A stretch of DNA of 64,000 bases from Campylobacterales bacterium (GTDB lineage: Bacteria > Campylobacterota > Campylobacteria > Campylobacterales > UBA6016): NCBI GenBank assembly GCA_050252455.1, contig JBFWKW010000007.1, forward strand, positions 296 through 64,295, in the 5' to 3' direction. The notes under the pieces are model-generated. The model was not told where the DNA came from. It did no database searches and saw only the letters and a program-made list of their open reading frames with translations. A program made the position numbers and the translations under genes. The stretch's first letter is position 1, and the number at the start of each line of letters is the position of its first letter. Shown in pieces: positions 6,789 through 61,864 of the stretch.

Positions 6789-6792
6789 GCGG

Positions 6793-7089
6793 TTATTCTT
6801 TTATGATAGAGTTTGCAAAAATATAAGCATTTTTATGGGTGGTTGCCAATTTTTTTAATTTTTTTAATTTTTGTTCTTTGGATAGATTGGTCGGCATGGC
6901 ATTGATTAGACTATCTAAATATTCGCCGCCATCATTGTTAATCTCAATAAGCAATCTATTGTGATTTAGGAGTACAAAAGAAACTATATGTGCATTTTCC
7001 TCTGCCTCGCTCCATCTTTTTAAATTTACAGATTCACATGAATAAGCAGATAAAAATAAGAAACAAGCGACGCAGAGATATTTATGCAC
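6793..7089 (-). CDS. Small exported protein, unknown function
   Basis: 98 aa with a signal peptide (MHKYLCVACFLFLSAYS). It abuts the PEGA gene stop exactly and lies 4 nt from the next gene. Confidence 0.5.
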   Translation of the reverse strand: MHKYLCVACFLFLSAYSCESVNLKRWSEAEENAHIVSFVLLNHNRLLIEINNDGGEYLDSLINAMPTNLSKEQKLKKLKKLATTHKNAYIFANSIIKE

Positions 7090-7455
7090 TTAGTCTTTTT
7101 TCATTTCAACAAAATAATTGTTTGGCTCATACTTCCAAGCCGCACCGGTAATCATATCTGTCGTACTAATATCCCAAAAGATATTTAGAAGAGCAACGCC
7201 GTCATATTGATGGGTTACAGGTAGATTTACCGTTTGGAAGCCATCTTTTTTGAAAGTAACTGTTTTGTCTTTTGATGATTTTGGCAGCGATATCGTGCAT
7301 GGGGTTGTGCATGTGGATACACCGTCAACTAATACCGTAGCGCCCTCAGGTTTACTGTTGAATGTTACATTTTGGTTTTGTCCGCTAATTATGGTGGCGC
7401 TTGCAAAAGCAAAGCTTGAAAGCATCAATGCCGAAGGAATAATTTTTTTTAACAT
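7090..7455 (-). CDS. PEGA-domain exported protein
   Basis: It has a signal peptide and a literal PEGA motif: SKPEGATVLVDGVSTCTTPCTISLPK...VTFKKDGFQ. Confidence 0.75.
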   Translation of the reverse strand: MLKKIIPSALMLSSFAFASATIISGQNQNVTFNSKPEGATVLVDGVSTCTTPCTISLPKSSKDKTVTFKKDGFQTVNLPVTHQYDGVALLNIFWDISTTDMITGAAWKYEPNNYFVEMKKD

Positions 7456-33760: not shown

Positions 33761-33788
33761 TTATTGCCTTGTGGGATTGTATTTAAAA

Positions 33789-33864
33789 TGGTGGCCCCGA
33801 TTGGACTCGAACCAACGACCACTACCATGTCAAGGTAGTGCTCTACCAACTGAGCTACGGGACC
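33789..33864 (-). tRNA. tRNA-Val (anticodon GAC)
   Basis: The reverse complement folds by hand as GGTCCCG-TA-GCTC-AGTTGGTA-GAGC-A-CTACC-TTGACAT-GGTAG-TGGTC-GTTGG-TTCGAGT-CCAAT-CGGGGCC-A-CCA. That is 76 nt with an encoded CCA and the TTCGA T-loop. Confidence 0.9.
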
Positions 33865-39467: not shown

Positions 39468-39530
39468 CGGTGCAATTTGGGCTTGCCTATGTTTTTACAA
39501 AAAATGCAAGCTACGAGAGGCACAAAGTAT

Positions 39531-41630
39531 ATGGAATTCAAAAATGTTTTGGACATTGCTACAAAGCAAATAACTTCGGTTAGCAGAAAAGATACGCTTA
39601 TTAAAGCGGCCGAATTGATGATTCAGAACAATTTGAGAAACGTGCTTGTTGTTGACGAGGGGATAAAAGAATACGGAATTATCACCGTTACGGATATAAC
39701 CGACTTTTTGCTAAGAGGCGTATCTTTTACGGATTTGGTTGAGTCCGTTGAGTTTAAAACCGTTAAACAAATAAGCCAAGACAGCAGCGCCTTGGAAGCC
39801 TCTTTTTTGATTAGGGAAGATGTTAACTATCTTTGTGTTGTTGATGATGCCAAAAATCTTTTAGGCGTCGTATCGATGTCAAACATAATATCCGCCATAG
39901 ATACGGAGCTTGTCGTTAATGAGATTAAACTAGGCCACATAATAGGCAAGACAAAAGCTAAAACCGCAAAAACAATCGATAGCTTGACCACTGTTTTTCA
40001 TAGAGTTAATGCAACTCCGACGGAAGCGGTAGTCATAATAGACTCTCATAACGTGCCGATAGGGATAATTACAAAAAGAGATATCGTAAAACTAATTATC
40101 AAAAATACGGATATGTCGCAAGAGGTAGCCGGATTTATGCAAACTCCGCTATTTACCGTAAATGAAGAGACAACGGTAAAAGAAGCTTTGGAGCTTATGA
40201 GCAAAAAAAGGTTTAAGCGCCTAATCGTCCTTGAAAGTCACGGTGAACTTATGGGGATTATTACCCGTGAAGAGATGATGGATATCGTCTACAATAAATG
40301 GTCGCAGATAGTAAGGGAAAAAGAGAGTCAACTTCAACGTCTATCCAAAACGCTAGCCGTTAAAACCGAGGAATCAGAGAGAACTACCAGACTTCTTAAC
40401 GACTTCATAGATGCGACCGACGACTTTATATTTTATAAAGATTTGGACTATAAATATATAGGGTGCAATAAGGCATTTGCCGAGTTTGCCGGAAAAGCAA
40501 AGGAAGATATAAGCGGAAAGACCGACTTTGATTTATTTGACGATTATTATTCAAATCTTTTTAGAGATACGGATAGGGATGTTCTTGAAAAAGGCAAAAC
40601 TATTATAAATAGCTATTGGACGAGATATAGCGATAAAAAAGCAGTTTATTTGAGTGTCAAAAAAGCCCCTTTAAGAGATAAAGACGGTACCGTTATAGGG
40701 TTGGTAGGAATATCAAGAGATACTACCGAGCAAAAAAACCTTGAAGATGCCATCAAGCATCAGCACAATTATCTTCAGACGATACTTGACATGCAAGAGT
40801 CTATGCTCGTTATTACCGAAGACGGAAATACCATCATTGAGGCCAATAAGAGCTTTCTTGAGTATTACGACGTAAGAACGATAGGCGAGTTTCACTCAAA
40901 ATACAAATCTATAGCCGACCTATTTGTAAAAAAAGAGGGCTATTTATCGAGCAAAAAAAACGGTCTTTGGTTTAAACTGCTTACCTCTTCTTATGACAGA
41001 GACTTCAAGGTCATGATGCAAAAAAATAGAAGCACGGAAGAGCCAAAAAGCTTTTTGCTAAAAGTTGAGAAATTCAAAAAAGATGAATCTTATCTAGTTT
41101 CATTTTTGGATATAACCAATATTGAAAAAGAGAGTAAGAACTTAGAGATTTTGGCCACGACCGACCCTCTAACCAAAATATATAACAGAATGAAATTCGG
41201 CAATATGATGGAAGCTGAGATAGCAAGGGCTAGAAAGTCGAAAAAGCCGCTTTCTCTCGTTGCCATAGATATAGACTTTTTCAAGAAAATAAACGATACA
41301 TATGGACATCAGGCCGGTGATTATGTGCTTATAACTACCGTTGAAATAATCAAATCTAAAATTAGAAGCAACGATATTTTTGCCAGATGGGGCGGGGAAG
41401 AGTTTATGCTTTTATTGCCTGGCGCAGATATGGATGTTGCGGTAGCTAGGGCAGAGATTATCAGGGCAGCTCTTGCAGAGTATGATTTTATAGAGCCCCA
41501 AAGCGTAACAGGTAGTTTCGGCGTCGCCTGTTTTAGGGATAATGATTCGATAGATACGTTTGTCAAAAGAGCCGATGAGGCGCTGTACGCCGCAAAAAGA
41601 AACGGCAGAAATAGGGTAGAGCATAATTAG
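39531..41630 (+). CDS. CBS(x4)-PAS(x2)-GGDEF diguanylate cyclase
   Basis: It has two CBS pairs in the N-terminal ~260 aa and two PAS regions. The GGDEF domain has an intact GGEEF and an RxxD I-site (RSND, 5 residues upstream). The start is uncertain (ATG 39489, 39504 or 39531). Confidence 0.85.
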   Translation: MEFKNVLDIATKQITSVSRKDTLIKAAELMIQNNLRNVLVVDEGIKEYGIITVTDITDFLLRGVSFTDLVESVEFKTVKQISQDSSALEASFLIREDVNYLCVVDDAKNLLGVVSMSNIISAIDTELVVNEIKLGHIIGKTKAKTAKTIDSLTTVFHRVNATPTEAVVIIDSHNVPIGIITKRDIVKLIIKNTDMSQEVAGFMQTPLFTVNEETTVKEALELMSKKRFKRLIVLESHGELMGIITREEMMDIVYNKWSQIVREKESQLQRLSKTLAVKTEESERTTRLLNDFIDATDDFIFYKDLDYKYIGCNKAFAEFAGKAKEDISGKTDFDLFDDYYSNLFRDTDRDVLEKGKTIINSYWTRYSDKKAVYLSVKKAPLRDKDGTVIGLVGISRDTTEQKNLEDAIKHQHNYLQTILDMQESMLVITEDGNTIIEANKSFLEYYDVRTIGEFHSKYKSIADLFVKKEGYLSSKKNGLWFKLLTSSYDRDFKVMMQKNRSTEEPKSFLLKVEKFKKDESYLVSFLDITNIEKESKNLEILATTDPLTKIYNRMKFGNMMEAEIARARKSKKPLSLVAIDIDFFKKINDTYGHQAGDYVLITTVEIIKSKIRSNDIFARWGGEEFMLLLPGADMDVAVARAEIIRAALAEYDFIEPQSVTGSFGVACFRDNDSIDTFVKRADEALYAAKRNGRNRVEHN

Positions 41631-41651
41631 GGTTTTTGGCGGAGGTTTGGC

Positions 41652-42599
41652 TTGATAACTTATGAAGAGGTAAACGGCTCTCTTGTAAAGCTGGATGAAA
41701 ACGAGATAAAAGAGGATGCCCATCAGGTATTTATATCTACGTTAAATAAGCCCCTTCTTGTTAACTGGCTAAAAGCGGAAGAATTGCCGGAGCCTTTTTT
41801 TGAGGATATTGCCTCTTTCGAGCAGACGCCGTCGTTTGAGGATTTTAGTGAAGGTACGGTTCTTATCCTTAAATATCTCAAGCTTGAAAGAGATGAGTTT
41901 ATCGACTTCTATGAAGAGAATGTGGCTTTAATTAATCTAGGAAATAAGCTCGCGATAGTTTGCAAAGATGAGATGACCGCTTTTGATATAGAGATGAAGT
42001 TTGACAAGCGTATGCGCGGCAAAAAAACAAATCTATATTTTGAGATGTATACATTTTTGGATATTTTGACGGATCAGCAGATACAGGCGCTGGATAGTGC
42101 AAACTCCATCCTTGAGGAGCTTGAAGAGAATATTCTCTCGGAGAGCGTTGAGAGACAAGAGACGCTAAAAAATCTATATTACGCTAGACGTTCGCTAAAT
42201 AGGCTATCTCATATCTTTGTGAATGAATCGGTTGCACTTAGCCGTTTTTTCACTAGCATTACGACATCGATTAAAAAGAAATTTAGATTTGAGTTTTTGG
42301 ATCTAAAAGAGCACAAGCAAAGTCTTGTTGCCGAGTGTAAGTCGCTCCAAGACAAGACGGTCAGCCTACTAAATCTTCAGCTGGGCCTTACCGACAATAA
42401 AGCCAATGAGGCAATGCAAAAACTAGCCGGTATCTCTCTTATTTTTATACCGCTCACATTTTTTACGTCGATATTTAGTATGAATTTTGAGCATATGCCG
42501 GAGCTAAAGACTGAGCACGGGTATCATGTAATGCTTGTGATAACTTTAGCCACCGGCGTTGCAATATACTATTGGCTTAAAAAAAGGAAGTTCTTATAG
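41652..42599 (+). CDS. corA: CorA-family divalent cation transporter with SMN instead of GMN motif
   Basis: The C-terminus has two TMs, FIPLTFFTSIFSMNFEHMPEL...KKRKFL. TTG start after GGCGGAGG. Confidence 0.8.
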   Translation: MITYEEVNGSLVKLDENEIKEDAHQVFISTLNKPLLVNWLKAEELPEPFFEDIASFEQTPSFEDFSEGTVLILKYLKLERDEFIDFYEENVALINLGNKLAIVCKDEMTAFDIEMKFDKRMRGKKTNLYFEMYTFLDILTDQQIQALDSANSILEELEENILSESVERQETLKNLYYARRSLNRLSHIFVNESVALSRFFTSITTSIKKKFRFEFLDLKEHKQSLVAECKSLQDKTVSLLNLQLGLTDNKANEAMQKLAGISLIFIPLTFFTSIFSMNFEHMPELKTEHGYHVMLVITLATGVAIYYWLKKRKFL

Positions 42600-43152: not shown

Positions 43153-43365
43153 ATGAATAAGCAAGAGAAAAACCTTATTAAGCAAGCAAGAGAAGATATG
43201 GACGAGACCGTCATATCAAATGCTTCTTTTAGAATTCAGTCTATACTTGAAGAGGTTTTCCAAAAAGGTATAGAGGTCGGCGAAACGATAGGTTATACTA
43301 AAGCAATTGTCGAGCATGCCGATTGTGCAAATATAAATATAAAACCAAAAAAGGGTTCAAAATAA
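43153..43365 (+). CDS. Small (70 aa) hypothetical protein translationally coupled to cheY
   Basis: MNKQEKNLIKQAREDMDE... begins with a GGAG 9 nt upstream. Its TAA (43363-43365) overlaps the cheY ATG (43365-43367). Confidence 0.4.
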   Translation: MNKQEKNLIKQAREDMDETVISNASFRIQSILEEVFQKGIEVGETIGYTKAIVEHADCANINIKPKKGSK

Positions 43366-43739
43366 TGAAAATACTTGTGGTAGACGATAGTTCAACAATG
43401 AGAAGAATTATAAAAAATACACTTAATCATTTGGGCTATAAGGATCTTCTTGAAGCCGAAGACGGCGCCCTTGCTTGGGAAACTATGACTCAAAACTCTG
43501 ATATAGGCGTATTGATTACAGACTGGAATATGCCGAACATGAACGGCTTGGAGCTTGTAAAAAAAGTTAGAGCAGAACAAAAATATGCAGATATGCCTAT
43601 AATCATGGTTACTACGGAGGGTGGTAAAACAGAAGTTATTACAGCCCTTAAAGCCGGTGTCAACAACTATATCGTTAAGCCTTTTACGCCTCAGGTTCTC
43701 AAAGAAAAACTAGAAGCCGTTTTAGGCATAAGCAACTAG
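43365..43739 (+). CDS. cheY: Chemotaxis response regulator CheY
   Basis: MKILVVDDSSTMRR, the phospho-Asp context LITDWNMPNMNG, VTTEG and the CheY-specific NNYIVKPF are present. 124 aa. Confidence 0.9.
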   Translation: MKILVVDDSSTMRRIIKNTLNHLGYKDLLEAEDGALAWETMTQNSDIGVLITDWNMPNMNGLELVKKVRAEQKYADMPIIMVTTEGGKTEVITALKAGVNNYIVKPFTPQVLKEKLEAVLGISN

Positions 43740-45969: not shown

Positions 45970-46059
45970 TCCCTTTTTTGATACTGCATTAAGCCCCGCA
46001 TTGATACTATAAGTTAATTATTTGTTAAACAAAAAAGTAGTGCTTTAAGAGGAGCGAGA

Positions 46060-48048
46060 TTGGCATACGGTTTGTCAAGAGAAAGAGATCTTGTCGTTTT
46101 ATTCGTTGAGGACGAAGAGGTAATCAGAGATAGCTTCGCAAGTATGCTGAGGGCGAAGTTTGAGAACGTCCTAGTTGCGGATAATGGAGAAGATGCGCTA
46201 AAGCTCTTTGAGTCCAACAGGGTTGATATAGTCATCAGCGACATCATAATGCCAAAACTAAACGGTGTAAAACTAGCCAAAGAGATAAAAAAAATAGCAC
46301 CGTCCACTTTTGTTATGCTGGTGACGGCGAGCAACGATCATGAGTATCTTATGGAGGCGATAGAGGCCGGAGTTAATAGATTTATACTAAAGCCTCTCAA
46401 TGTAAAAAGCTTTTTTGAGGTTTTGGATGCGGTATGCAGCGAGCAGAAAATTAAAAAAGAGCTTGCCGAAAAAGACCAGCTTTTGGAGGAGTACAAAACT
46501 GCCGTCGATGCCAGCAACATCGTTTCAAAGACCGACACCAAAGGGATAATTACTTATGCAAATCAAGCCTTTTGTGACACAAGCGGTTATTCGGTTGAAG
46601 AGTTGATAGGTAAACCGCAAAACATAGTAAGACATCCCAATATGCCAAAAAGCGTATTTAAAGAGATGTGGGAGACTATCCAGTCAAAGCATATATACAA
46701 GGGCGTAGTCGAGAACAAGCGCAAGGACGGGAGTAGCTACTTTGTCGATGCAACGATAGTTCCTATTTTGGGCGTTGACGGCGAGATTATCGAATATCTG
46801 GGTATTAGACATGATATTACGGAGTTTATAAACAATAAACAAAAACTTTATACAAACGCATTGACCGGGCTTCCGAATAGATATAAGCTCTCATCTGATT
46901 TGACTGCCGGAAACGGCGGCAGTTTGGCAGTTATAAACGTAGATTCGTTCAAGATACTCAACGACTACTATGGCTCAAATATAGGGGATATGGTTCTTGT
47001 CGAGCTGGCCGGTAGATTTGTCAAAATATTCGGCTCCAATAATCTAACTGTGTATAAGCTCTCGTCCGATGAATATGGCATTTTTTGCGAAGAGTGCAAA
47101 TCCGATTTTGTAGATGAGATAACAAGGGGCGTTCATCTTGCAACGATAGATAGTATAAGATGCGGAGACGTCGATATAGTAACAAGCGTAACGGCCGGAA
47201 TAGCCGTAGGTAAAGACGGTTTGCTCGAAAAAGCCAATATGGCTCTTGGATTTGCTAAAAAATATAAAAAGCAGATATCCGTGTATGATGAGAGCATGCT
47301 AATAGGCAAAAACTATGAAAAAAACATCACAATTTCAAAAACACTCAGAGAGGCGATAGACGGAGATTGGTTTGTCCCTTATTTTCAGCCGATAGTAAAC
47401 TGCGTGACAAATGAGATAGAAAAATATGAAACATTGGTTCGTATAGTCAAGCCAAGCGGGGAGGTCCTATCGCCGATGGAGTTTCTCGATGTGGCTAAGG
47501 CTACAAGGCTATACCCGCATATCACTAGAACTATGATAGCAAAGGCTTTTGAGATATTTAAAAACAAAAAAGAGTCTTTTTCCGTCAACTTGTCGGTAGA
47601 GGATATACTAGATGAGCATACAAGGGCTTTTGTCCTTGGAATGCTTGGCGGATACGGTATATCGGATCGTGTTATATTTGAGATATTGGAGTCTGAGGGG
47701 ATAGAAAATTACGGCGATGTATCCGAGTTTCTCGCCGCAGCAAAAAAATTTGGCGTTAAAATAGCTATTGACGATTTTGGAACCGGGTATTCTAATTTTG
47801 AGCATCTTGCCAAACTGAACGTAGATATCATAAAAATAGACGGGAGTCTAATTAGAAACATAGATACGAACTCAAACTCCGAAATTATAGTAGAGACTAT
47901 AGTTAGCTTTGCAAAGAAGCTTGGAATGCAGAGCGTTGCCGAATTTGTTCATTCAAAAGAAGTGTACGATAAAATAAAAAAAATAGGAATCGACTATGCG
48001 CAGGGATATCTTTTGGGTAAGCCTGACGTATTGTCAGAGGGCAAATAA
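46060..48048 (+). CDS. REC - Aer-like PAS - degenerate GGDEF (SSDEY) - EAL protein
   Basis: The receiver has VEDEE, VISDIIMP, LVTAS and ILKP. The PAS domain has NIVRHPNMPKSVFKEMW. The GGDEF position reads KLSSDEY. The EAL domain has EILESEG, DDFGTGYSNF, KIDGSLI and QGYLLGKP. TTG start after AAGAGGAG. Confidence 0.9.
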   Translation: MAYGLSRERDLVVLFVEDEEVIRDSFASMLRAKFENVLVADNGEDALKLFESNRVDIVISDIIMPKLNGVKLAKEIKKIAPSTFVMLVTASNDHEYLMEAIEAGVNRFILKPLNVKSFFEVLDAVCSEQKIKKELAEKDQLLEEYKTAVDASNIVSKTDTKGIITYANQAFCDTSGYSVEELIGKPQNIVRHPNMPKSVFKEMWETIQSKHIYKGVVENKRKDGSSYFVDATIVPILGVDGEIIEYLGIRHDITEFINNKQKLYTNALTGLPNRYKLSSDLTAGNGGSLAVINVDSFKILNDYYGSNIGDMVLVELAGRFVKIFGSNNLTVYKLSSDEYGIFCEECKSDFVDEITRGVHLATIDSIRCGDVDIVTSVTAGIAVGKDGLLEKANMALGFAKKYKKQISVYDESMLIGKNYEKNITISKTLREAIDGDWFVPYFQPIVNCVTNEIEKYETLVRIVKPSGEVLSPMEFLDVAKATRLYPHITRTMIAKAFEIFKNKKESFSVNLSVEDILDEHTRAFVLGMLGGYGISDRVIFEILESEGIENYGDVSEFLAAAKKFGVKIAIDDFGTGYSNFEHLAKLNVDIIKIDGSLIRNIDTNSNSEIIVETIVSFAKKLGMQSVAEFVHSKEVYDKIKKIGIDYAQGYLLGKPDVLSEGK

Positions 48049-48057
48049 GGCATAGGT

Positions 48058-49710
48058 TTGGAATTATTACAAGAGTATTCGGAAGTCGATAAATACAAAG
48101 ATATTAAGCTTTTATGCGTCGAAGATGAGCCCGAGGTCGGCACATGGTTTTTGAAGCATTTTTCAAAAATTATCCCATCCGTGTTTGTTGCTAATGACGG
48201 TGCAGAAGGGTTTGAAATATTCAAGCGAGAGATGCCGGACATCGTCATAACCGATATTATGATGCCATCCATGAACGGGCTTGAACTTGCAAAAAAGATA
48301 AAAGAGATATCGCCTAGGACAAAAATAATAGTCGTGACGGCCTACGGCAGCAGTGAATATCTCATGGAGGCTATTGAAATAGGGGTTGATAGATTCATGA
48401 CAAAACCTCTATCACTTGAAAAACTAGACAAATCTTTTTTTTCGTGCGCCAAGGTAATAGCGACTGAAAAAGAACTTGTTAAAAAGAAAGAAGAGATAAG
48501 CCAAATAGAGAATGTGGACTCTTTGACTTTGTTGCCAAACAGAAGAAAACTAATAGAAATAATAGAGCTCTGTGATTATCCGGCTCTTGCGATACTAAAT
48601 ATAGATTCGTTCAAGGAAGTTAACGATTTTTACGGACATTCTGCCGGCGATAGTCTGCTTTTGGAGATAGCAAAAAGAATTTCCAAGATGGCAAAAGAAG
48701 ACGGATACGATGTCTTTAAGCTCTCGGCAGACGAGTATGCGATATTCAAAGACTCATCATGCAAAAACGAATTTAGCCAATATATAAACTCCCTAATCGA
48801 TAGAATGGAGTCTGAAAACTTCAGCTATGACGAAAACGACATAACCGTTTCGTTTACCGCCGGTATCGCGCTGGGTAAAACATCTCTTTTGTCAAAGGCC
48901 GACATGGCGCTCAAAGAGGCAAAACGCTCCAAAAAAACTTTTGTGGTATACGAGGAAAGCCTAAAGGTGATGGAGATTTATTCAAGTAATCTAACCTGGA
49001 GCAAAAAACTTAGAAGCGCCATTAAAGACAATAGAATAGTCTCATATTTTCAGCCGATAGTAGACAACAAAACCCTTGAAATAAAAAAATACGAATGCTT
49101 GGCCAGAATGCTTGACGATAGCGGCAATAGTATCTCTCCCAACTACTTTTTGGATATATCGAAAAAAAATAGGCTGTATCCTAGAATAACAAAAAAAATG
49201 TTGGATATGTCGTTTGAAATTTTCTCCGGATTGGAGTATGAGTTTTCGGTAAACCTTTGCGTAGAGGATATGCTAGATCCGGCAACCAGCTCTTATATTT
49301 ACTCAAAGCTCGATGCGTACAGAGGCAGGGCAAAAGTAGCGTTTGAGATTTTGGAATCGGAGCGGATAGAGGAGTACGACGAGGTTAAAGAGTTTATCAA
49401 AAATATCAAGCGACTCGGCGGCAAGATATCGATAGATGACTTCGGTAGCGGCTACTCAAATTTCGAGCATATTTTGCGCCTCAACGTAGACTATATCAAA
49501 ATAGACGCGTCCATGATAAAACACATAGATACGGACAGGAATTCTCAAATTATAGTGGACACGATAGTCGGGTTTGCTCAAAAGCTGGGGATTAAAACTA
49601 TAGCCGAGTTTGTCCATTCCGAGGGTGTTTTCCACAAGGTAAGAGAGCTTGGCGTCGATATGTCGCAGGGGTATTATTTTTCCGCACCGACAGAGGGTAT
49701 ACAGGTATAG
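48058..49710 (+). CDS. REC - degenerate GGDEF (SADEY) - EAL protein
   Basis: The receiver has VEDEPE, VITDIMMP, VVTAY and MTKP. The GGDEF position reads KLSADEY. The EAL domain has EILESER, DDFGSGYSNF, KIDASMI and QGYYFSAP. Confidence 0.9.
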   Translation: MELLQEYSEVDKYKDIKLLCVEDEPEVGTWFLKHFSKIIPSVFVANDGAEGFEIFKREMPDIVITDIMMPSMNGLELAKKIKEISPRTKIIVVTAYGSSEYLMEAIEIGVDRFMTKPLSLEKLDKSFFSCAKVIATEKELVKKKEEISQIENVDSLTLLPNRRKLIEIIELCDYPALAILNIDSFKEVNDFYGHSAGDSLLLEIAKRISKMAKEDGYDVFKLSADEYAIFKDSSCKNEFSQYINSLIDRMESENFSYDENDITVSFTAGIALGKTSLLSKADMALKEAKRSKKTFVVYEESLKVMEIYSSNLTWSKKLRSAIKDNRIVSYFQPIVDNKTLEIKKYECLARMLDDSGNSISPNYFLDISKKNRLYPRITKKMLDMSFEIFSGLEYEFSVNLCVEDMLDPATSSYIYSKLDAYRGRAKVAFEILESERIEEYDEVKEFIKNIKRLGGKISIDDFGSGYSNFEHILRLNVDYIKIDASMIKHIDTDRNSQIIVDTIVGFAQKLGIKTIAEFVHSEGVFHKVRELGVDMSQGYYFSAPTEGIQV

Positions 49711-49711
49711 C

Positions 49712-51004
49712 ATGAAAAGATACGGCTTTTCCAAAGTACTAAAGGCAACCAGTTGTCTGCTCGGTAAGATAAAGCCGTTTTGCGAAGTAGATGAGCTAAC
49801 TGGAGTTTTGAATCTAAGGGCGCTAAGGTCTGATTTGGAGGATGGCGGCAATTATGCGATGGCCTTGGCAAATATTGACGGCTTCTCTACCGTTAATAAT
49901 GCTTACGGGATAGATGCCGGCGATACCTTACTGAGAGGTTTTTGTAACGTACTAAAAAAGAACATACCTATGGGGGCTATTATCTATCGTTGCTACGGCG
50001 ATGAGTTTGCGATACTTTTCCCATCCTGCGATGCCGATACCGCAGAGAAGTTTGCCGAACAATTGGACGGGTATTTATCATTTTCCAGCATTGATATAGG
50101 CGGGGTTGATTTAAAAATAGCAGTTACCGTTGGAATATCGGCGGGTAGCGGGGATAATCTCTTAAAGCATGCGTCAATAGCCTTGATGGAGGCTAGATTA
50201 TCAAAGAAAAACCATGTTGCGTACGATAGCGGCAATGAACTTGAAAAAAAGATACAAAAAATATTCTACTGGCAAACAAAACTAAAAGAGGCTTTGACGG
50301 ACGGGCATCTGACACCTTTTTATCAACCTCTGCTAAATAACAATACCGGAAAAATAGATAAATTTGAGTCGCTTATTAGATTGCGGCACGAAGGAAACAT
50401 AGTGTTGCCGATAGATTTTTTGGATGCTGCCAGAGAGGGCGGCATGCTAAGTTCTGTGACAAAAATAATGATATCCGAATCGTTTAGAGAGTTTTCAAAA
50501 AATAACTATGCGTTTTCCGTAAATATTACGGAGCAAGACCTTTTGGATAAAAACTTTATCAACTTTTTGGAGAAAAAATTAGCGTCCAATAACATAGAGC
50601 CGCACAGAGTTTATTTTGAGCTTTTGGAGGGCATCAGTACCGATGTCGCGAATAACTCTCTTGAAACACTAAAAGATATAAAGAGGATGGGCTGCAAGCT
50701 GTCCGTTGATGACTTTGGCACCGAACACTCAAATTTTAGAAGGTTGCTAGAGCTAGAGGTTGATTTGATCAAAATTGACGGCAGCTTCATAAAAAATCTG
50801 GACAAATGCGAGACAAGCCAAAAGATAGTTCGTAGCATAATCAGTTTTGCAAAAAGTATCGGCGGGATGACGGCTGCCGAATTTGTGCATTCAAAAGAAA
50901 TTCAAAGTATTATTAAGGATATGGGGATAGACTATTCACAGGGATATTACATAGGAATTCCAAATCCGAAACCTGAAATAATACATGATGAGGCGTTTGA
51001 TTAA
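49712..51004 (+). CDS. GGDEF (YGDEF) - EAL protein without receiver
   Basis: ATG 49712 is 1 nt after the upstream TAG. The GGDEF domain begins DELTGVLNLRAL and the motif reads CYGDEF. The EAL domain has ELLEG, DDFGTEHSNF, KIDGSFI and QGYYIGIP. Confidence 0.85.
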   Translation: MKRYGFSKVLKATSCLLGKIKPFCEVDELTGVLNLRALRSDLEDGGNYAMALANIDGFSTVNNAYGIDAGDTLLRGFCNVLKKNIPMGAIIYRCYGDEFAILFPSCDADTAEKFAEQLDGYLSFSSIDIGGVDLKIAVTVGISAGSGDNLLKHASIALMEARLSKKNHVAYDSGNELEKKIQKIFYWQTKLKEALTDGHLTPFYQPLLNNNTGKIDKFESLIRLRHEGNIVLPIDFLDAAREGGMLSSVTKIMISESFREFSKNNYAFSVNITEQDLLDKNFINFLEKKLASNNIEPHRVYFELLEGISTDVANNSLETLKDIKRMGCKLSVDDFGTEHSNFRRLLELEVDLIKIDGSFIKNLDKCETSQKIVRSIISFAKSIGGMTAAEFVHSKEIQSIIKDMGIDYSQGYYIGIPNPKPEIIHDEAFD

Positions 51005-51603
51005 TGAGGGCTTTAATAGCAGAAGATAGCCAAATTATGCGAAAGATAGTGAAGACTAATCTTCAAAAACTATCTGTTAACAGAATATACGAGTCGGTTG
51101 ACGGCAATGCTGCGTTTGCTACGCTAAATGCAAATGCAGATATTGATTTGTTATTTACGGATCTTAATATGCCAAACCTCAACGGTCTTGAGTTTTGCAA
51201 AAAGATAAAACAATCCGGCGATAAGTTCAAAAACCTGAGAATAATAGTAATCTCGGAGCATTTGAGCGATACCGTAAGGGAGTCTTTTTTGACGCTCGGT
51301 ATATCGCATTTTGTTCCAAAACCGTTTGATTTGAAAGCATTTAACGATGTCGTAATTCCTCTTATAGAAGATATAAAAAACGGTGTTTTACCAAAAGACG
51401 GCGTAGATATGAGTAAGGATGAGTTCGTCAAAAAAATAAAAGAAGAACAGCCTCTCGTCTCCATAAACGAAGAAGAGCTGACGATTAACTTCAATAAAAT
51501 GAGCGTAAGGGTTTCGCTTGACAAGCTTTTGGAAGCCGGAAAAATAAAATCTGACGATAGTGATGAAAGCGGTAAATATGTCGAGCTCAAAGATAAGCAA
51601 TAA
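51004..51603 (+). CDS. Single-domain response regulator with ~75-aa C-terminal extension of unknown function
   Basis: The receiver has IAEDS, LFTDLNMP, VISEH and VPKP. The start ATG overlaps the upstream TAA (TAATG). Confidence 0.85.
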   Translation: MRALIAEDSQIMRKIVKTNLQKLSVNRIYESVDGNAAFATLNANADIDLLFTDLNMPNLNGLEFCKKIKQSGDKFKNLRIIVISEHLSDTVRESFLTLGISHFVPKPFDLKAFNDVVIPLIEDIKNGVLPKDGVDMSKDEFVKKIKEEQPLVSINEEELTINFNKMSVRVSLDKLLEAGKIKSDDSDESGKYVELKDKQ

Positions 51604-53512
51604 TATAGACTTTAGCATTCTAATAGTAGATGATAGCCCTTTTATCGTCGAGGTCTTAAAGACTTTTTTAAATCGATTTTCCCCAAACATTATTGAGGCC
51701 GAAAACGGCAAGCTTGGGCTAGACCTTTACAGGCTACATAAGCCTGACTTTATAGTTTCCGACGTTGTTATGCCGATTATGAACGGCCTTGAGATGAGCA
51801 GGGAGATAAAGGCTATCAACAAAGACGCCTTTATAGTCCTAACTACCGCCGTAGAAGATAAAGACAATCTTGCGGAAGCAATCGAAATAGCTATTGATAA
51901 GTATTTGCCAAAGCCCATAGATTTAAGACGATTAGAGCAGATTTTGCTTGAATTTATGGAGCATCTAAGCGCCAAAAAAGCGTTGGAGGATAACAGGCAC
52001 CTCCTTGAGGAGTATAGAAAAGCGCTGGATTCGGCAGCTATTTTTACTGTGACCGATACAAATGGAATTATCAAATACGTAAACGACGAATTTGTCCACA
52101 CAACCGGCTACAGCAAAGAAGAGGCTGTCGGAAATTCCCATAATATAGTCAGACACCCTGAGACTCCAAAAGGCGTATTCAAAGCTTTGTGGGAGAGCAT
52201 ATCCGGCAAAAAGATATGGAAAAGCGTTCTGGAGAATAGAGCCAAAAACGGAGAGAGTTTTTTTGTCGATAATACTATAGTTCCGATACTCGGTACGGAT
52301 GGCGAAATCATAGAGTATATCGGCATATCATATGACATTACCGGCATAAGGGAGATGAACGAGAGAAATCTGCAATCTATCTTTAATGCCGATGAGTCGC
52401 TTATTATAGTGACCGATGATAGATTTGAGATAAAAATAGTTAATAAGTCTATGCTAAAGGTGCTTGGTGCGGAGAGCATCGCCGATTTTTATAAAGACAA
52501 CGAAGCGATTTATGATAGATTTTTGCCGAGGGACGGTTTTTTGAGCAAAGATGATTTGGTCGGCACTGGGCGAAAGGATAGATACAGAAGATTTAAAAAG
52601 GTATTGACGGAGGGTGATAAAAGACAACGTAAGGTGGCGATGTGTACGCCTGACGGCGAAGAGAGATATTACGCCGTAAGAGTCAGTACCGTTAGCGATA
52701 AAATGGTTGTCAACAAGCACTACAATATTTTTAGCTTCGTCGATATAACGGAGCTTGAGCTGATGAGACAGCAGCAGATAAACAATATCAAGCTAAGTTC
52801 GATAGGTAAGCTCGCGGCAGGGATAACGCACGAAATAAATACCCCGCTTACGTATATCAAGGGCAACTTGGAAATATTAAAAATGGATATAGCCAACGAT
52901 TGCGCATGTGGTTTGAAGCATGATTATTTGGCGGCTTGCGAGGCTATGGAAGACGGCATAAAGCGTATGGCGGCGATTGTAGAGTCGATGCGAGAAATAG
53001 CGGGCGTAAGCAGAACTGAAAAAACGGAAGTAAACGTATACACAACCATTATCTACTCGCTCCGTATGGTTTACAACAAAGCAAAACAGATATGCAATAT
53101 AACGGTAAACGGCAAGCCGTTTGATATGTCTCTCGACAAGGATGCAGAAAATATTTCTATGGTGGCTACGCCGCAGAGACTTGAGCAAATTTGGATTATT
53201 ATTTTGAATAATGCGCTAGATGAGTATATTAAGTCCAAACTCCCGTTTGAACAGCGTTTCATAGATATTCAAGTTTCAAAAAAATTGGATATAATCAAGA
53301 TTATTATAAAAGATAATGCCGGCGGTATAGAAGCCACTATGCTGCCACATATATTCGATATATTCAAAAGCTCAAAACCGCAGAGCGGAATGGGCGTCGG
53401 ATTGAATATAGCAAAGTCTATCATAGAAGATCACGGCGGCGAAATAACTGCTCGCAATGAAGATGGCGGGGCGGTGTTTGAAATAGTCTTTAAAGAAAGA
53501 AGGGAGTCTTAA
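51578..53512 (+). CDS. Hybrid sensor histidine kinase: REC - Aer-like PAS - PAS - HisKA - HATPase_c
   Basis: It has an N-terminal receiver ([22 protein letters not shown]), a PAS with [17 protein letters not shown], the H-box [16 protein letters not shown]-box [11 protein letters not shown]1 KDNAGGI and G2 [18 protein letters not shown]. The start is 51578 or 51560. Confidence 0.9.
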
Positions 53513-54825
53513 TGTTTTTTTCGTCAAAAAACGATTGTTTGAAATATGAAGAGGAGATAAAAGCTCTAAAAGAAGAGCTTGAATACTACAAAGAGCTTGC
53601 GGGATTTACCGTAGACGAAGGTGTTTTTGTTATAGATGAAAACGCAAATATAATGTTCAAAAATGAAAATTGCCCGGAGTTTCCGAATAAAATCGCTAAG
53701 TTTAAAGCCGAGTTGTTCTCCGGAGTAAAGAAAATAGAAGACGAGACCTGCGAAGCCGATGTCAGAACAAAAAGTCTTCCGGGCGGAAAGCTACTTGTTG
53801 CTCTATCTCGCAGAGACAATGACCTAAAAAATGACGACGAACTAATTTCTATGCACCAAACAAGCATAAAAAATGCCCTTTCAAATACGCAAAAAGCGTT
53901 TGCGGATATGCTTACCAAATTTGACTTGATGATAGCACAGTCCAAGGATACCGCCGAAAGCTCAACGGACGGCATGGATATACTAAATAATATTGTAAAC
54001 AGCATGGATAAACTATTTACGCTGATGAGCGAAGCAAATTCTATGATGAATTCTCTAGTTGATAGAAGCAATGAGATTTCTAGTGTTATTATGCTCATCA
54101 AAGATATAGCGGAGCAGACAAACCTTCTGGCACTAAACGCCGCGATAGAGGCTGCGAGAGCCGGAGAGCAAGGAAGAGGTTTTGCGGTTGTTGCAAGTGA
54201 AGTCGGCAAATTGGCAGAGAAGACGCAAAAAGCGACAAAAGAGATAGCAATAGTTGTTCAAACTATGCAGCAAGAGATAAGCGATACGCAAAGAGGCACG
54301 GAAGAGATAGGCGAAATAGTCGGCGTAACCAAGGGGCATGTAGATAGCTTCTCCGAAAAACTTGATATGTTCCAAAAGAATGCGGCAAGAGCAGTGTTCG
54401 AAACACTCGATATCTCAAACCAAGTGTTTGTAAACCTTGCAAAAATAGACCACGTGATATACAAAAACAATCTATACGCTTACTTATTCGGTCAAAATAC
54501 CGAGTTTAACAAAGTTGACCACCACAACTGTCGTCTCGGCAAATGGTACGAAGGCGGCGTCGGTAAAAAACAATTCGGTGAAATGCCAAGCTATGCAAAA
54601 CTAGACAAACCTCACTCTATCGTGCATACTTATGCGAATGAGCTTGCCCAAAAATGTGGAGGCGGACACACAATCGCTTGTAGCAAAAAAGAGGTTGAGG
54701 AAAAAGTGCATGCTATAGAAAACGCAAGTATGGATGTAGGCGCCGCACTAGACCAAATTGTCACAGAGAAGACACAGCAATTAATGAAAATGGCAATAAA
54801 AGATCTTTTTAACGAGGGTAAATAA
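53512..54825 (+). CDS. Soluble chemoreceptor (MCP signalling domain + C-terminal CZB zinc-binding domain), TlpD-like
   Basis: It has no TM. The MCP hairpin tip reads [40 protein letters not shown]. The CZB motif is H314-x2-Y-x22-C340-R-L-G-K-W-x22-H368-x3-H372. The start ATG overlaps the kinase TAA. Confidence 0.9.
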
Positions 54826-55203
54826 ATGATAAAGCTAATGATAGTAGACGATGAATCTCAAATTACCGCAATGCTTGAGAAGTGGTTTTCAAAAAATAAA
54901 GAGTTTTCGGTTAGCACATTCAATAATCCGGAAATAGCTCTTACGAGCTTTAATACGGTAAAGCCAGACGTAGTTCTTCTGGATATCATGATGCCGCAAA
55001 TGGACGGAATAGTTGCCCTTGAAAAAATAAAAAATATGGATCCGGCTACCGTTGTTGTGATGATGACCGCATATTCTACGCTTGATAGAGTACTTTCAAG
55101 TCATAGACAAGGGGCCGAAAGCTATATACTAAAACCGTTTGAAAGTCTTTCCGACGTTGAGGAAAAAGTAAGAGCGGCTTATTCCAAAAGGGTGGAAAAA
55201 TAA
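54826..55203 (+). CDS. Single-domain response regulator (CheY-like)
   Basis: IVDDES, VLLDIMMPQMDG, MMTAY and ILKPF are present. The ATG abuts the upstream TAA. Confidence 0.9.
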   Translation: MIKLMIVDDESQITAMLEKWFSKNKEFSVSTFNNPEIALTSFNTVKPDVVLLDIMMPQMDGIVALEKIKNMDPATVVVMMTAYSTLDRVLSSHRQGAESYILKPFESLSDVEEKVRAAYSKRVEK

Positions 55204-55244
55204 TTATCTCCCGTCATCTTCTAATCTTTCTATCTGCCGCCGCT

Positions 55245-55682
55245 TTGTTTTGCGGCTGCGCAGACAATCAACCAAAAGTTTCACAAAGTGTTTTTGTCTC
55301 AATCGTCTCAAAAAATATCAAATTTTCGGATATGGGATTTTTCAACGAATACGAGAGCAAAAAAAGTCTCGATGTTTACGCTCTGGGCACTCCCGTATTT
55401 AAGATAGATTTTGACGACATGGTATGCTTGGGTTCCGGCTGTATGGGCAAAGAAGAGTTTGTTAAAAGCTATATGTCGGAGGCTTTGTATCCTGACGCTA
55501 TGAATGATATTCTAAGCCAAAAACCGCTAAAAATAGGGTCAAAAATAACCACCTATGACGGCGGCTTCACACAAGAGGCGATAGATTCCGGCTACGACAT
55601 AACATATAAAGTTGACAAAAAAGAGATATATTTTTTTGAGCGCATAGGTGGGTTCAAATTTCACTTGAGGTTCTTGGATTGA
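55245..55682 (+). CDS. Putative lipoprotein, unknown function (true start probably ATT 55203)
   Basis: The ORF-track TTG start yields MFCGCADNQ with no signal peptide. The in-frame upstream codons read [19 protein letters not shown], a complete lipoprotein-type leader. Confidence 0.5.
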
Positions 55683-56533
55683 AATCAAAAAAACTTGTCG
55701 GGGCGCATGTAAGCGCATCGGGCGGCATTTTTAACGCACCGCTTAACGCCAAAGCTATAGGGGCAAATGCTTTTGCTCTGTTTTTAAAAAATCAAAAACA
55801 GTGGAATGCAAAAGACTACGACGATAAAACAATAGATGCCTTTCGAGCAAATATGAAAGAGTGCGGCTTTGAGCCAAGCGCAGTGTTGGCGCACGATGGA
55901 TATTTGATTAATCTCGGTTCGCCGGAGGATGAGGCCAGGGAAAAATCAAAAGCTGCATTTTTGGATGAAGCTAGACGTGCCGAGGAGCTTGGGCTTTTGC
56001 TGCTAAACTTTCACCCAGGAAGTCACCTTAGAAAAATATCCGAAGAAGAGTGTCTGAAACTCATAGCGGAAGCAATGAACGAAACCATAAGCAAAACAAA
56101 AACAGTTAAGCTTGTGATTGAGAATACGGCCGGGCAGGGGAGCAATATGGGATATCGCTTTGAGCATTTAGCTCGTCTGATTGAATTGACTGAAGACAAG
56201 AGCAGAGTCGGCGTTTGTCTTGATACCTGCCATACTTTTGCATCTGGATATGACCTTAGAGGCAAGGAGGCGCTAGATGCTACGTTTGCCGATTTTGATA
56301 ATACGGTCGGCTTCTCTTATCTTCTAGGGATGCACCTTAATGACTCAAAAGGCGGGCTTGGCTCCAAACTAGATAGACATGATAGTCTCGGGCTCGGTAC
56401 TATAGGGCTTGGTTGTTTTGAGTATATTATGAAAGACGCTAGATTTGATAATATTCCGCTGATACTTGAGACGCCAAACGACGCTATTTGGGCCGATGAG
56501 ATAAAAATGCTTAGAGCTTACGAGGAAAACTAA
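55679..56533 (+). CDS. nfo: Endonuclease IV
   Basis: Metal-site motifs [32 protein letters not shown] and HLNDSK are present. The TTG start overlaps the upstream TGA. Confidence 0.9.
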
Positions 56534-56534
56534 T

Positions 56535-57104
56535 ATGATTTTGATGATAGACAATTACGACAGCTTCACATACAACGTCGTGCAATACTTTAAAGAGCTA
56601 GGTGCCGACCTCAAGGTGATACGAAACGATGAAATGACGGTTGAGGAGATAGAGGCTTTAAATCCTGAAAAAATAATCATCTCCCCGGGGCCGTCAACAC
56701 CGAATGAAGCGGGTGTGAGCCTGGAGGTCATCAAGAGACTAGGGCACAAAATACCGATTTTGGGTATATGCCTAGGTCATCAGGCGATAGGACAAGCCTT
56801 TGGCGGCACGGTAGAGAGAGCGCCAAATATGATGCACGGCAAAACATCTAAGATGAAAATTTGTAAAGATTCACCAATATTCAAAGATATTCCAGGGGAG
56901 TTTACGGCAACTCGTTACCACTCTCTTATCGTAAACAAAGATAGCGTCCCATCTTGCATTATTCCGACGGCGTTTAGCGCCGATGACGGCGAGATAATGG
57001 CGCTAGAGGTCGAGGGCAAGCCAATCTATGGCGTACAATTCCATCCGGAATCAATCTTATCCGAGTATGGACACAAGATATTCGATAACTTTCTAAAACT
57101 TTAA
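56535..57104 (+). CDS. Anthranilate/aminodeoxychorismate synthase component II (class I glutamine amidotransferase, TrpG/PabA)
   Basis: The catalytic triad context GICLGHQ and VQFHPES is present. 189 aa. Confidence 0.9.
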   Translation: MILMIDNYDSFTYNVVQYFKELGADLKVIRNDEMTVEEIEALNPEKIIISPGPSTPNEAGVSLEVIKRLGHKIPILGICLGHQAIGQAFGGTVERAPNMMHGKTSKMKICKDSPIFKDIPGEFTATRYHSLIVNKDSVPSCIIPTAFSADDGEIMALEVEGKPIYGVQFHPESILSEYGHKIFDNFLKL

Positions 57105-60516: not shown

Positions 60517-60543
60517 TTGATAAATTACGAAGAGGAGAGGTCT

Positions 60544-61854
60544 ATGGCGCAAAGAGCTATTAGAGAGTATGACGGCAAAGCGCTGTTCGCCAAAGTATGG
60601 AACAACTATTTTGACGGTTTTAAATACGGTTTTGAGTCCGTTTTGGTAACAAGCAGCGCAGAGCTAAAGGCAAAGGCAAAAGAACCGGGCTATGAGTGGC
60701 TAAGCACAAAAGCTTTGGTTGCAAAACCGGATATGCTATTTGGTAAAAGAGGGAAAAACAATCTTGTATTGTTCAAAGACCAAAAGCCTGGCGATGTTAG
60801 CCTTGATAAAGCGGCATCTTGGATAGACGAAAAAATCAAAGAAGACACAAAACTTCTAAGCGGACAACATGGAACGCTTACTCACTTTATAGTTGAGCCT
60901 TTTACACCACACAGCCAAGAAGAAGAGTACTATATCTCAGCTACCGTTGTCGGAGAGGACGATGTGCTTTATATGTCTGCCGAGGGCGGCATGGAAGTCG
61001 AAGAGGGCTGGGATGAAAAAGTCGTAGAAGTGACCGTGCCTATCACAATGTCTGACGCCGAGATGGAAGCGAAAGTAAGAGCCGCAATCCCGGCTGACAT
61101 CAAAGACAAAAAATCATTCGGTGACTTTGCCGTATCGTTTTTCAAATTCTATAGAGATATGAACTTTGCATATCTTGAGATAAACCCGATAGTTATGCAA
61201 GGAGATAAATGCGAGCTTCTCGACCTTGTGGCAAGACTTGACGATACTGCGGGCTTTATGATGAGAGAGACATGGGGTGATATCGAATATCCGACTGCGT
61301 TTGGCATGGAAGACCAATCTCCGGAGGAAAAAGCTATTGCGGAAGCTGACGCAAAATCGGGCGCATCACTCAAACTTACCATACTAAACCCAAAAGGTCG
61401 TATCTGGACTATGGTTGCGGGAGGCGGCGCATCGGTTGTTTATGCCGATACTATCGCAGATCTTAGCGGCAATGTTGAAGACCTTGCAAACTACGGCGAA
61501 TACTCAGGCGGCCCTACGACTGGCGAAACAGAGTTTTACGCTTCGACGGTGCTTGATTTGATGACAAGAGAAAAAGACGTAAAAGGTAGAGATAAGATTC
61601 TAATCATTGGCGGCGCTATCGCAAACTTCACGGACGTTGCAAAAACATTTACCGGCATTATCCAAGCATTTGAAAAATACGCGGACAAAATGAAAGCTGT
61701 CGGCACAAGAATATATGTAAGAAGAGGCGGACCAAACTTTGAAAAAGGTCTAAAAGACATCAAAGAGGCCGCAGATAGACTAGGGCTTTACATAGAAGTT
61801 TACGGACCTGAAACGCATGTAACAGACATCGTTAGAATGGCGCTAGAGAAGTAA
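60544..61854 (+). CDS. aclB: ATP-citrate lyase beta subunit (ATP-grasp, succinyl-CoA synthetase beta-like)
   Basis: MAQRAIREYDGKALFAK... is the ACL N-terminus, and the gene is paired with aclA 10 nt downstream. I chose ATG 60544 after GAGGAGAGG. Confidence 0.9.
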   Translation: MAQRAIREYDGKALFAKVWNNYFDGFKYGFESVLVTSSAELKAKAKEPGYEWLSTKALVAKPDMLFGKRGKNNLVLFKDQKPGDVSLDKAASWIDEKIKEDTKLLSGQHGTLTHFIVEPFTPHSQEEEYYISATVVGEDDVLYMSAEGGMEVEEGWDEKVVEVTVPITMSDAEMEAKVRAAIPADIKDKKSFGDFAVSFFKFYRDMNFAYLEINPIVMQGDKCELLDLVARLDDTAGFMMRETWGDIEYPTAFGMEDQSPEEKAIAEADAKSGASLKLTILNPKGRIWTMVAGGGASVVYADTIADLSGNVEDLANYGEYSGGPTTGETEFYASTVLDLMTREKDVKGRDKILIIGGAIANFTDVAKTFTGIIQAFEKYADKMKAVGTRIYVRRGGPNFEKGLKDIKEAADRLGLYIEVYGPETHVTDIVRMALEK

Positions 61855-61864
61855 GGGGAATAAG

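Follow-up and report, generated by a model that had tools for sequence, protein, structure and literature searches.

The window analyzed here is a 64,000-nucleotide stretch of a Campylobacterales contig (JBFWKW010000007.1), and its plus strand carries seven consecutive open reading frames (ORFs) at 46060-55203, designated g1 to g7 in their order on that strand. The cluster is a composite: an old, conserved core (g5-g6-g7) encodes a histidine kinase, a chemoreceptor-type protein and a stand-alone receiver, and to this is joined a lineage-specific add-on (g1-g4), which encodes three GGDEF-EAL proteins and a receiver with a tail. All seven proteins lack transmembrane segments, and the system is therefore wholly cytoplasmic. 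The interpretation preferred here, for which the chances are judged to be about even, is that of a two-layer cytoplasmic redox island in which g5 would signal to g7, g7 would act with a CheA-coupled g6, and cyclic di-GMP (c-di-GMP) phosphodiesterases would operate in parallel.

A conserved triplet and its lineage-specific extension

Sixteen orthologues of the kinase were aligned, one genome per species was scanned, and 80 loci, seeded on relatives of the kinase, were fetched (numbered L0xx below). In the window, g5 (51578-53512; 644 aa) encodes a receiver (REC) domain, a PAS region matched by two PAS_9 stretches, HisKA and HATPase_c; g6 (53512-54825) encodes an MCPsignal-CZB protein resembling the soluble chemoreceptor TlpD; and g7 (54826-55203; 125 aa), which abuts the stop codon of g6, encodes a stand-alone REC domain. 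These Pfam assignments, like those of the other four genes, were all above the gathering scores, and they agree with the architectures proposed for the seven proteins in a first-pass annotation of the window.

The full triplet was found in 68 of the 80 loci, under three phylum-level labels. Its carriers include Sulfuricurvum, Sulfurimonas, Sulfurospirillum, the Arcobacteraceae, Denitrovibrio and other Deferribacterales, and metagenome-assembled genomes labeled as Nitrospirae. The genes are arranged as kinase-chemoreceptor-receiver in 29 of these loci, as chemoreceptor-receiver-kinase in 37 and divergently in two, and in all 68 a g7-like receiver gene starts directly 3' of the MCP-CZB gene. Identity to the window is 42-53% for the kinase core, approximately 40-60% for the MCP-CZB protein and 47-64% for the g7-like receiver. 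Ten loci had no MCP-CZB gene, several of them being truncated contigs. In Sulfurimonas denitrificans DSM 1251 the triplet stands alone between genes for ribosomal proteins and RNase HII, and in Limisalsivibrio acetivorans it stands alone between genes for glycosyltransferases and ribonucleotide reductase; in both organisms the three genes overlap or nearly abut. In Malaciobacter halophilus and Sulfuricurvum the trio was confirmed by Pfam matches. Where kinase identity falls to 38-42% (L088, L089 and L008), no phosphodiesterase genes lie alongside the kinase: L088 and L008 are bare triplets, and in L089 the contig breaks off within the MCP-CZB gene.

The other four genes were seen only in one Campylobacterales lineage. 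They are g1 (46060-48048; TTG start; 662 aa; REC-PAS-GGDEF-EAL), g2 (48058-49710; TTG start; 550 aa; REC-GGDEF-EAL), g3 (49712-51004; 430 aa; GGDEF-EAL, without a receiver) and g4 (51004-51603), which encodes a CheY-like REC domain followed by a tail of about 75 aa without a Pfam match. The gene content is non-random, as the gene order recurs in about ten related contigs. The full order was found only in one narrow lineage (L002-L007 and L087), in each case flanked by cheY-mutS2 on one side and by a lipoprotein gene, nfo and pabA on the other. A more distant member, L086, has g1-g6 in the same order at 44-59% identity, followed by hemB on the opposite strand; the retention of this order despite divergence and a changed downstream flank speaks for selection acting on g1-g6 together.

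The first-pass annotation had treated the seven genes as a unit to be sought across Campylobacterota. The order was indeed kept, but within one lineage, and only g5-g6-g7 proved to be deeply conserved. Nor is the cluster a single indivisible system, since g2, the receiver domain of g1, and g7 are each missing from some members of the lineage. The g1 orthologues of L005 and L087 lack the REC domain, and g2 is absent from L004 (2669-2695) and L007 (8684-8700). L007 is close to the window, with 95% identity in the g1 and mutS2 products, yet g2 is precisely missing from it. The short repeat AGG(C/T)ATAG(G/C) stands at both borders of g2 in the window (48049-49711), which suggests gain or loss of the gene by short-repeat recombination, whether as an insertion or a deletion.

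Neighboring genes may also persist side by side in a compact genome when the same conditions call for all of them, with each protein working independently and no signal passing between them. On such a view g6 would serve taxis, g5 would phosphorylate partners of its own and g1-g3 would turn over c-di-GMP. All seven ORFs and their junctions lie exactly where the first-pass annotation had placed them: there is a 9-nt gap between g1 and g2, a 1-nt gap between g2 and g3, a TAATG stop/start overlap between g3 and g4 (51002-51006), a 26-nt overlap between g4 and g5 (51578-51603), a second TAATG overlap between g5 and g6 (53510-53514) and an abutting TAA-ATG between g6 and g7 (54823-54828). The junctions of the proposed translationally coupled operon are therefore real, but they are a weak argument for shared function. 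Among the 38 same-strand junctions that lie outside the cluster, 21 measure 10 nt or less (median 4 nt), and the same packing joins cheY to mutS2 and the lipoprotein gene to nfo and pabA. Tight packing is thus genome-wide, and it was ruled out as specific evidence of functional coupling.

That the chain of closely spaced genes runs on beyond g7 through the lipoprotein gene, nfo and pabA, that several members are individually dispensable, and that nearly every protein has a sensor domain of its own are all consistent with co-regulation and nothing further. Against this, the triplet has survived rearrangement between kinase-first and kinase-last orders, in distant taxa and between unrelated flanks, and two of the proteins need partners, g7 having no output domain and g3 no input domain. 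Co-regulated neighbors without signal exchange are consequently regarded as an improbable explanation.

The proteins of the cluster

The only kinase core in the cluster is that of g5. H418, which lies in the motif THEINTPL, and the N544/N545, D579-x-G-G and G604-x-G-x-G-L boxes are invariant in the 16 orthologues, as expected of a HisKA kinase, and the core scores with the AtoS/ZraS models of NCBIfam. The first PAS domain of g5 aligns to those of Aer (8DIK) and MmoS (3EWK) with the R-H-P motif kept, and a second PAS-like region lies between this FAD-type domain and HisKA. The PAS domain of g1 is 61% identical to that of g5, both being FAD-type by sequence, and it has MmoS, Aer and NifL (2GJ3) as its best solved relatives, again with R-H-P kept. 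Both domains align end to end with those of the three flavoproteins (E 1e-18 to 5e-30) and keep the N-x-V-R-H-P, W and N-R-x-K-x-G motifs. At the positions of Aer D60 and M61, g5 has E-T, and g1 has N in place of D60; the outputs are a HisKA kinase and a phosphodiesterase, respectively, rather than an MCP hairpin. The earlier description of these domains as Aer-like is justified at this level; their membership of the Aer/NifL/MmoS flavin-binding type is clear from the alignments, and flavin binding itself is putative.

Variation was observed among the relatives of g5. The first PAS domain of the L086 kinase (5238-7154) has lost the R-H-P motif (HTAVYNDNLSK), and g1 of the same locus keeps VVRHENMP. 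The kinase gene of L007 has a frameshift in the codons of its H box, caused by seven consecutive C (11817-11850, orthologous to 52820-52865 of the window; ACCCCCCCTT as against ACCCCGCTT in the window), which could be the mark of a pseudogene, a phase-variable tract or an assembly error. The Arcobacteraceae locus L046 (6846-11575) has two kinase-like genes after its MCP-REC pair; the first encodes a 724-aa PAS-HATPase protein in which HisKA was not clearly matched, and the second an 850-aa sensor-PAS-PAS-HisKA-HATPase protein.

Five of the seven proteins contain a receiver, and in alignment with the CheY of the window all five keep the acidic pair, the phospho-acceptor aspartate, the T/S position and K-P, in agreement with the first-pass annotation. 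The receivers fall into three dissimilar groups: those of g1, g2 and g5 (32-47% mutual identity), that of g4, which is CheY-like (37% identical to the CheY of the window), and that of g7, which stands apart. The best scores of g7 were with AtoC/NtrC receivers (NCBIfam), the same two-component family as the AtoS/ZraS-like core of g5. The family match and the co-occurrence of the two genes together make g5 to g7 the most likely cognate pairing, and g7 is therefore the probable partner of g5.

These relationships bear on a model put forward in the first-pass annotation, according to which g5 would be the phosphoryl donor for every one of the five receivers in one branched relay, with the phosphodiesterases as its outputs and g6 as a second sensor encoded in the same transcript. 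The lone kinase core, the catalytic completeness of the five receivers, and the order of g1-g6 in L086, held at about 50% divergence beside a changed flank, are as this model would have them, and phosphorylation of several receivers by one kinase, REC-EAL proteins included, is an established pattern (RocS1/RocR, VieS/VieA). However, with the receivers in three groups, of which only g7 fits the family of the kinase and g4 is CheY-like, the notion that g5 phosphorylates all five equally is not the economical reading. Two of the proposed acceptors, g2 and g7, and the receiver of a third, g1, are each lost in some members of the lineage; the deep conservation is of g5-g6-g7 and not of the kinase with the phosphodiesterases. 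In addition, g1 has its own copy of the REC-PAS(FAD) input module of the kinase, which suggests parallel sensing rather than a hierarchy from kinase to phosphodiesterase. The branched relay is not favored for these reasons and is considered unlikely, a feed from g5 to the receivers of g1 and g2 being possible. Hpt, CheA, CheW, CheR, CheB and DNA-binding domains were found neither in the seven proteins, as had been stated for the cluster, nor in the flanks scanned (39.5-63.7 kb); the locus is accordingly neither a multistep His-Asp-His-Asp phosphorelay, which includes Hpt, nor a Che/Wsp-type pathway, in which CheA and CheW accompany the receptor.

The g6 protein matched MCPsignal (E 1e-33) and CZB (E 6e-16). 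The 3His/1Cys site of its CZB domain (H314, C340, H368 and H372) is invariant in 31 sequences and in the orthologues of the lineage, which supports the CZB assignment made at first pass. The tip of its hairpin (I199-V231) is almost fully invariant among the 31 family members, which are 48-92% identical. In an AlphaFold (AF2) model (pLDDT 81.7) a helix at the N-terminus precedes a small alpha/beta domain of PAS-like form (37-101), a short MA hairpin and a CZB bundle; the best Foldseek match of the model was Tm14 (3G67; TMt 0.86, rmsd 2.4), with Tsr also matched, and the hairpin superposes on both. No transmembrane helix is indicated, the maximum Kyte-Doolittle(19) value being 0.99, as against 3.13 in the neighboring membrane MCP. 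By sequence and predicted structure, g6 has the features of a TlpD-like soluble CZB chemoreceptor, with putative coupling to CheA/CheW and a putative role in taxis. Two additional cysteines (C382-x7-C390, in CGGGHTIAC; 54655-54681) are invariant in all 31 members, and the pair could be a second redox or metal site.

TlpD of Helicobacter pylori likewise has no transmembrane segment, a PAS-like N-terminus, a short MA hairpin with a canonical tip and a 3His/1Cys CZB site, and McpA of Salmonella is another soluble CZB chemoreceptor of this kind. The PAS-MA-CZB layout of g6 corresponds to the TlpD crystal structure as it is described in 10.64898/2026.01.16.699579, the likeness being drawn from that description. 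TlpD responds to HOCl and zinc, and it signals through CheW and CheA according to PMC6715182 and the same preprint. The g6 family differs in having its own N-terminal sequence and the invariant C382-x7-C390 pair. TlpD is not known to be encoded beside a histidine kinase and a receiver.

It is conceivable that g6 works without CheA, either as an accessory sensor that controls g5 or as the terminal target of g5/g7, within a zinc/redox two-component system that is complete in itself and built around a protein with the MCP fold. The three genes stay together, and overlap, in genomes under three phylum-level labels, and che genes were absent from the triplet neighborhoods examined (L046, L017, L082, L084 and L088). 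The N-terminal domain of g6 is specific to its family, having only about 20 carriers among 1.84 billion representatives (50% clustering), the extra C-x7-C pair is invariant, and BdlA shows that a protein with the MCP fold can act on a partner outside the Che system. However, the tip of g6 is canonical and nearly invariant, as expected if trimer-of-dimers and CheA/CheW contacts are under selection, which argues that the contacts of an array-forming chemoreceptor are still maintained. Moreover, g5 has neither a CheW-like nor a P5-like domain (Pfam), and no precedent was found for an MCP tip that regulates a HisKA kinase. A role independent of CheA is considered quite unlikely.

The EAL domains of the cluster keep the ExLxR, E(I/L)LE, DD, IKID, AEFV and QGY motifs. 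In g1 these read ETLVR, EILE, DDFGTGYSNF, IKID, AEFV and QGY; they are kept in the orthologues and fall on the catalytic positions when g1 is aligned to RbdA (RbdA/PA0861, 5XGB), its closest solved relative (E 1e-37). Both g1 and g2 carry the full catalytic and metal-binding set of ExLxR, N, E(x)xE, DD, K, E and Q together with loop 6 in the form DDFG(T/S)GYSNF. The catalytic residues are also kept in g3, the loop 6 of which reads DDFGTEHSNF in all eight orthologues, so that g3 only partly matches an active EAL domain. The GGDEF motifs are SSDEY in g1, SADEY in g2 and YGDEF in g3, in the same degenerate states in the orthologues of eight loci, and the intact GG(D/E)EF of a diguanylate cyclase is found in none of the three. 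The combination of degenerate GGDEF and retained EAL residues noted at first pass therefore extends to the orthologues, and g1 and g2 are predicted to be c-di-GMP phosphodiesterases. The two are paralogues (53% identical in EAL and 47% in REC), and both match the PvrR model at the domain level; with scores of 138 and 111 bits, far under the equivalog cut-off of 580, they are not PvrR orthologues.

The g4 family comprises 26 clusters in 5.8 billion proteins and is confined to this Campylobacterales lineage, in the loci of which g4 always directly follows g3. In the AF2 model of g4 (pLDDT 86.9; 81-90 in the tail) the tail, which is conserved, has a predicted alpha-beta-beta-beta-alpha fold, and Foldseek matched the REC part of the model only. 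An Hpt domain was considered for the tail and ruled out, as the tail contains no histidine and is not a helical bundle.

Proposed signal flow

In the two-layer scheme, g5 would sense the redox state of the cell through its flavin-type PAS domain, autophosphorylate on H418 and pass the phosphoryl group to g7, a stand-alone receiver of the AtoC/NtrC type. Lacking an output domain, g7 must exert its effect through contact with another protein, and g6, the only partner that is always co-encoded, directly upstream of g7 and in translational coupling with it, is therefore the candidate target. The zinc-thiolate site of the CZB domain would report zinc or oxidant status, and the hairpin tip of g6 would plug into CheA/CheW(/CheV) arrays encoded elsewhere. 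Phospho-g7 would then tune the signaling state of g6 or its recruitment to the arrays, bringing flavin redox and zinc/oxidant inputs together in one taxis output.

The second layer would consist of g4 and the three paralogues g1, g2 and g3, which would hydrolyze c-di-GMP. Possessing the REC-PAS(FAD) module of the kinase, g1 would respond in parallel to the redox signal that the kinase senses; both g1 and g2 could also be switched through their receivers, for which g5 is the obvious, if unproven, donor. The receiver-less g3 would probably be controlled in trans by g4. As a net effect, a shift in redox or oxidant conditions would alter the direction of swimming and lower c-di-GMP together, so that cells detach and swim.

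Several points weigh against this scheme. Binding of a receiver to a chemoreceptor in the manner proposed for g7 is not known. The N-terminal REC domain of g5 could itself be the main phosphoryl acceptor, and the conserved adjacency of the three genes could reflect co-regulation only. Within the 39.5-63.7 kb scanned, CheA, CheW and CheV were not seen, and cheY (43365-43739) is the only che gene. The presence of the triplet in 68 of 80 loci speaks for this kinase family traveling with MCP-CZB and REC genes, and not for all TlpD-like receptors. In L086 there is no g7 within 1.1 kb after g6, and g7 is thus dispensable there. The activity of g3 is less certain than that of g1 and g2, and its atypical loop 6 may make it an inefficient enzyme. 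Beyond the lineage, only about 5 of about 60 loci carry GGDEF-EAL genes close to the triplet. Such a frequency does not exceed the chance rate, estimated at approximately 10% from the gene density of Arcobacter butzleri, for which roughly 25 GGDEF/EAL genes per 2.3 Mb have been reported, and a general link between the triplet and c-di-GMP genes was rejected.

A bolder reading of the same triplet is that it is an unrecognized module in which a protein with the chemoreceptor fold is the physical partner of a non-CheA two-component system. The extension seen in this lineage would then set c-di-GMP as well, and one cytoplasmic device would link steering to attachment and detachment along redox gradients. 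In such a module, either phospho-g7 would be a receptor-specific modulator that replaces methylation-based adaptation, or g6 would be a zinc/redox sensor that gates the kinase. This reading is put forward tentatively and is considered unlikely.

Genomic setting and related systems

A gap of 90 nt separates the mutS2 stop codon from the TTG start of g1, and 5 nt before that start is the Shine-Dalgarno sequence AAGAGGAG (46047-46054, plus strand), both as described at first pass. The gap also contains, on the plus strand and 46 nt upstream of the g1 start, a TGATAC-TATAAG block (46002-46013). A block of the form TGATA(C/A)-(T/C)ATAA is common to the window, L002, L004, L005, L007 and L087, and the remainder of the gap sequence diverges; this -10-like block is the probable promoter of the cluster, which is in keeping with the promoter-type gap that had been proposed. 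The sequence TTGATACT is present twice in the gap, 24 nt apart (45975-46009). Its second copy lies within the -10-like block and its first is kept only in the closest relatives, and the doubled element may be a binding site for a regulator. Consensus scans returned 39 promoter-like sites, as against 30.8 +/- 5.3 in shuffled sequences, and 16 terminator-like sites, as against 12.8 +/- 4.1; all were weak and intragenic and are uninformative as to a single transcript. No terminator-like site was found in the scan between g7 and the lipoprotein gene. No RNA element was matched by Rfam in or beside the cluster, and hence no c-di-GMP riboswitch.

Downstream of g7 are, in order, the lipoprotein gene (55203-55682, plus strand), nfo (55679-56533, plus strand; Pfam), a gene for a pabA/trpG-type glutamine amidotransferase (56535-57104, plus strand; Pfam) and a gene for a membrane Cache-MCP. 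The first three probably share the transcript of the cluster and are context, outside the signaling system. No ATG, GTG or TTG precedes the signal peptide of the lipoprotein; its n-region, h-region and lipobox begin at an ATT codon (55203) that overlaps the g7 stop and is the probable start. The peptide is kept in L002, L003, L004 and L007, where it follows ATA, ATT or ATC codons. The gene therefore probably uses a non-canonical start codon, and gene callers probably place its start too late.

Upstream, the order is CBS-PAS-GGDEF, CorA, cheY and mutS2. The gene for the CBS-PAS-GGDEF protein (39477-41630) has a strong GGDEF match (E 4e-46); it lies 4.4 kb upstream of the phosphodiesterase cluster and is followed by CorA, the two together spanning 39477-42599, and this neighbor is also kept in L087. 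Genes resembling aclB/aclA, for the subunits of ATP-citrate lyase, lie at 60517-63682, and the organism is therefore probably an autotroph using the reverse tricarboxylic acid cycle, of the Sulfurimonas/Sulfuricurvum kind. Elsewhere in the window, a tRNA-Val(GAC) gene lies on the minus strand (33789-33864, within the region 33687-33864) and is overlapped by a plus-strand Rfam match to the Helicobacter antisense RNA family HPnc0260 (66 bits; gathering score 59).

In Pseudomonas aeruginosa, BdlA, a soluble PAS-containing protein with the MCP fold, binds and stimulates the phosphodiesterase DipA (PMC13584717). The BdlA-DipA/RbdA system resembles the present cluster in combining such a protein with GGDEF-EAL phosphodiesterases that lower c-di-GMP and restore motility, and it is the nearest functional precedent; an interaction between g6 and the phosphodiesterases here is purely hypothetical. 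The Pseudomonas BdlA, DipA and RbdA genes are dispersed rather than gathered in one operon, BdlA has no CZB domain, and neither a dedicated HisKA kinase nor a stand-alone receiver is known to belong to the system. RocS1-RocR, PvrR and VieS-VieA are alike in placing a receiver-EAL fusion under a histidine kinase, with a branched output; in comparison with RocR, PvrR and VieA, g1 and g2 have an additional degenerate GGDEF domain, g1 has a flavin-type PAS domain as well, and their cognate kinase is putative.

The Wsp system is similar in concept, with an MCP-fold sensor upstream of c-di-GMP turnover, but it uses a CheA-like kinase, CheW, CheR, CheB and a REC-GGDEF cyclase, whereas the output here would be degradation. 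DgcZ of Escherichia coli (CZB-GGDEF) also ties a CZB zinc/oxidant sensor to c-di-GMP metabolism; there, CZB and an active cyclase form one protein, whereas in this cluster CZB belongs to a chemoreceptor and the phosphodiesterases are separate. The surveys of CZB proteins consulted classify domain architectures and not gene neighborhoods. Neither the triplet nor the seven-gene cluster was found to be described in the freely searchable literature, which accords with the earlier impression that no system of this architecture had been characterized. The components are all of known kinds; what is new is the conserved operonic tie of a TlpD-type receptor to a non-CheA two-component pair, together with its phosphodiesterase extension.

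Little is understood of how free-living, sulfur-oxidizing Campylobacterota find their place in the steep gradients of oxygen and sulfide that they inhabit. TlpD-type CZB receptors have so far been studied as stand-alone chemoreceptors in pathogens; the operon of their environmental relatives, with a flavin-PAS kinase and a receiver, points to a layer of receptor control, or to a CheA-independent use of MCPs, that is absent from the pathogen models. As the triplet is present in cultured S. denitrificans DSM 1251, L. acetivorans and M. halophilus, these possibilities are directly testable. The seven-gene version illustrates how the module may gain a c-di-GMP output, through paralogous phosphodiesterases that reuse the input domain of the kinase.

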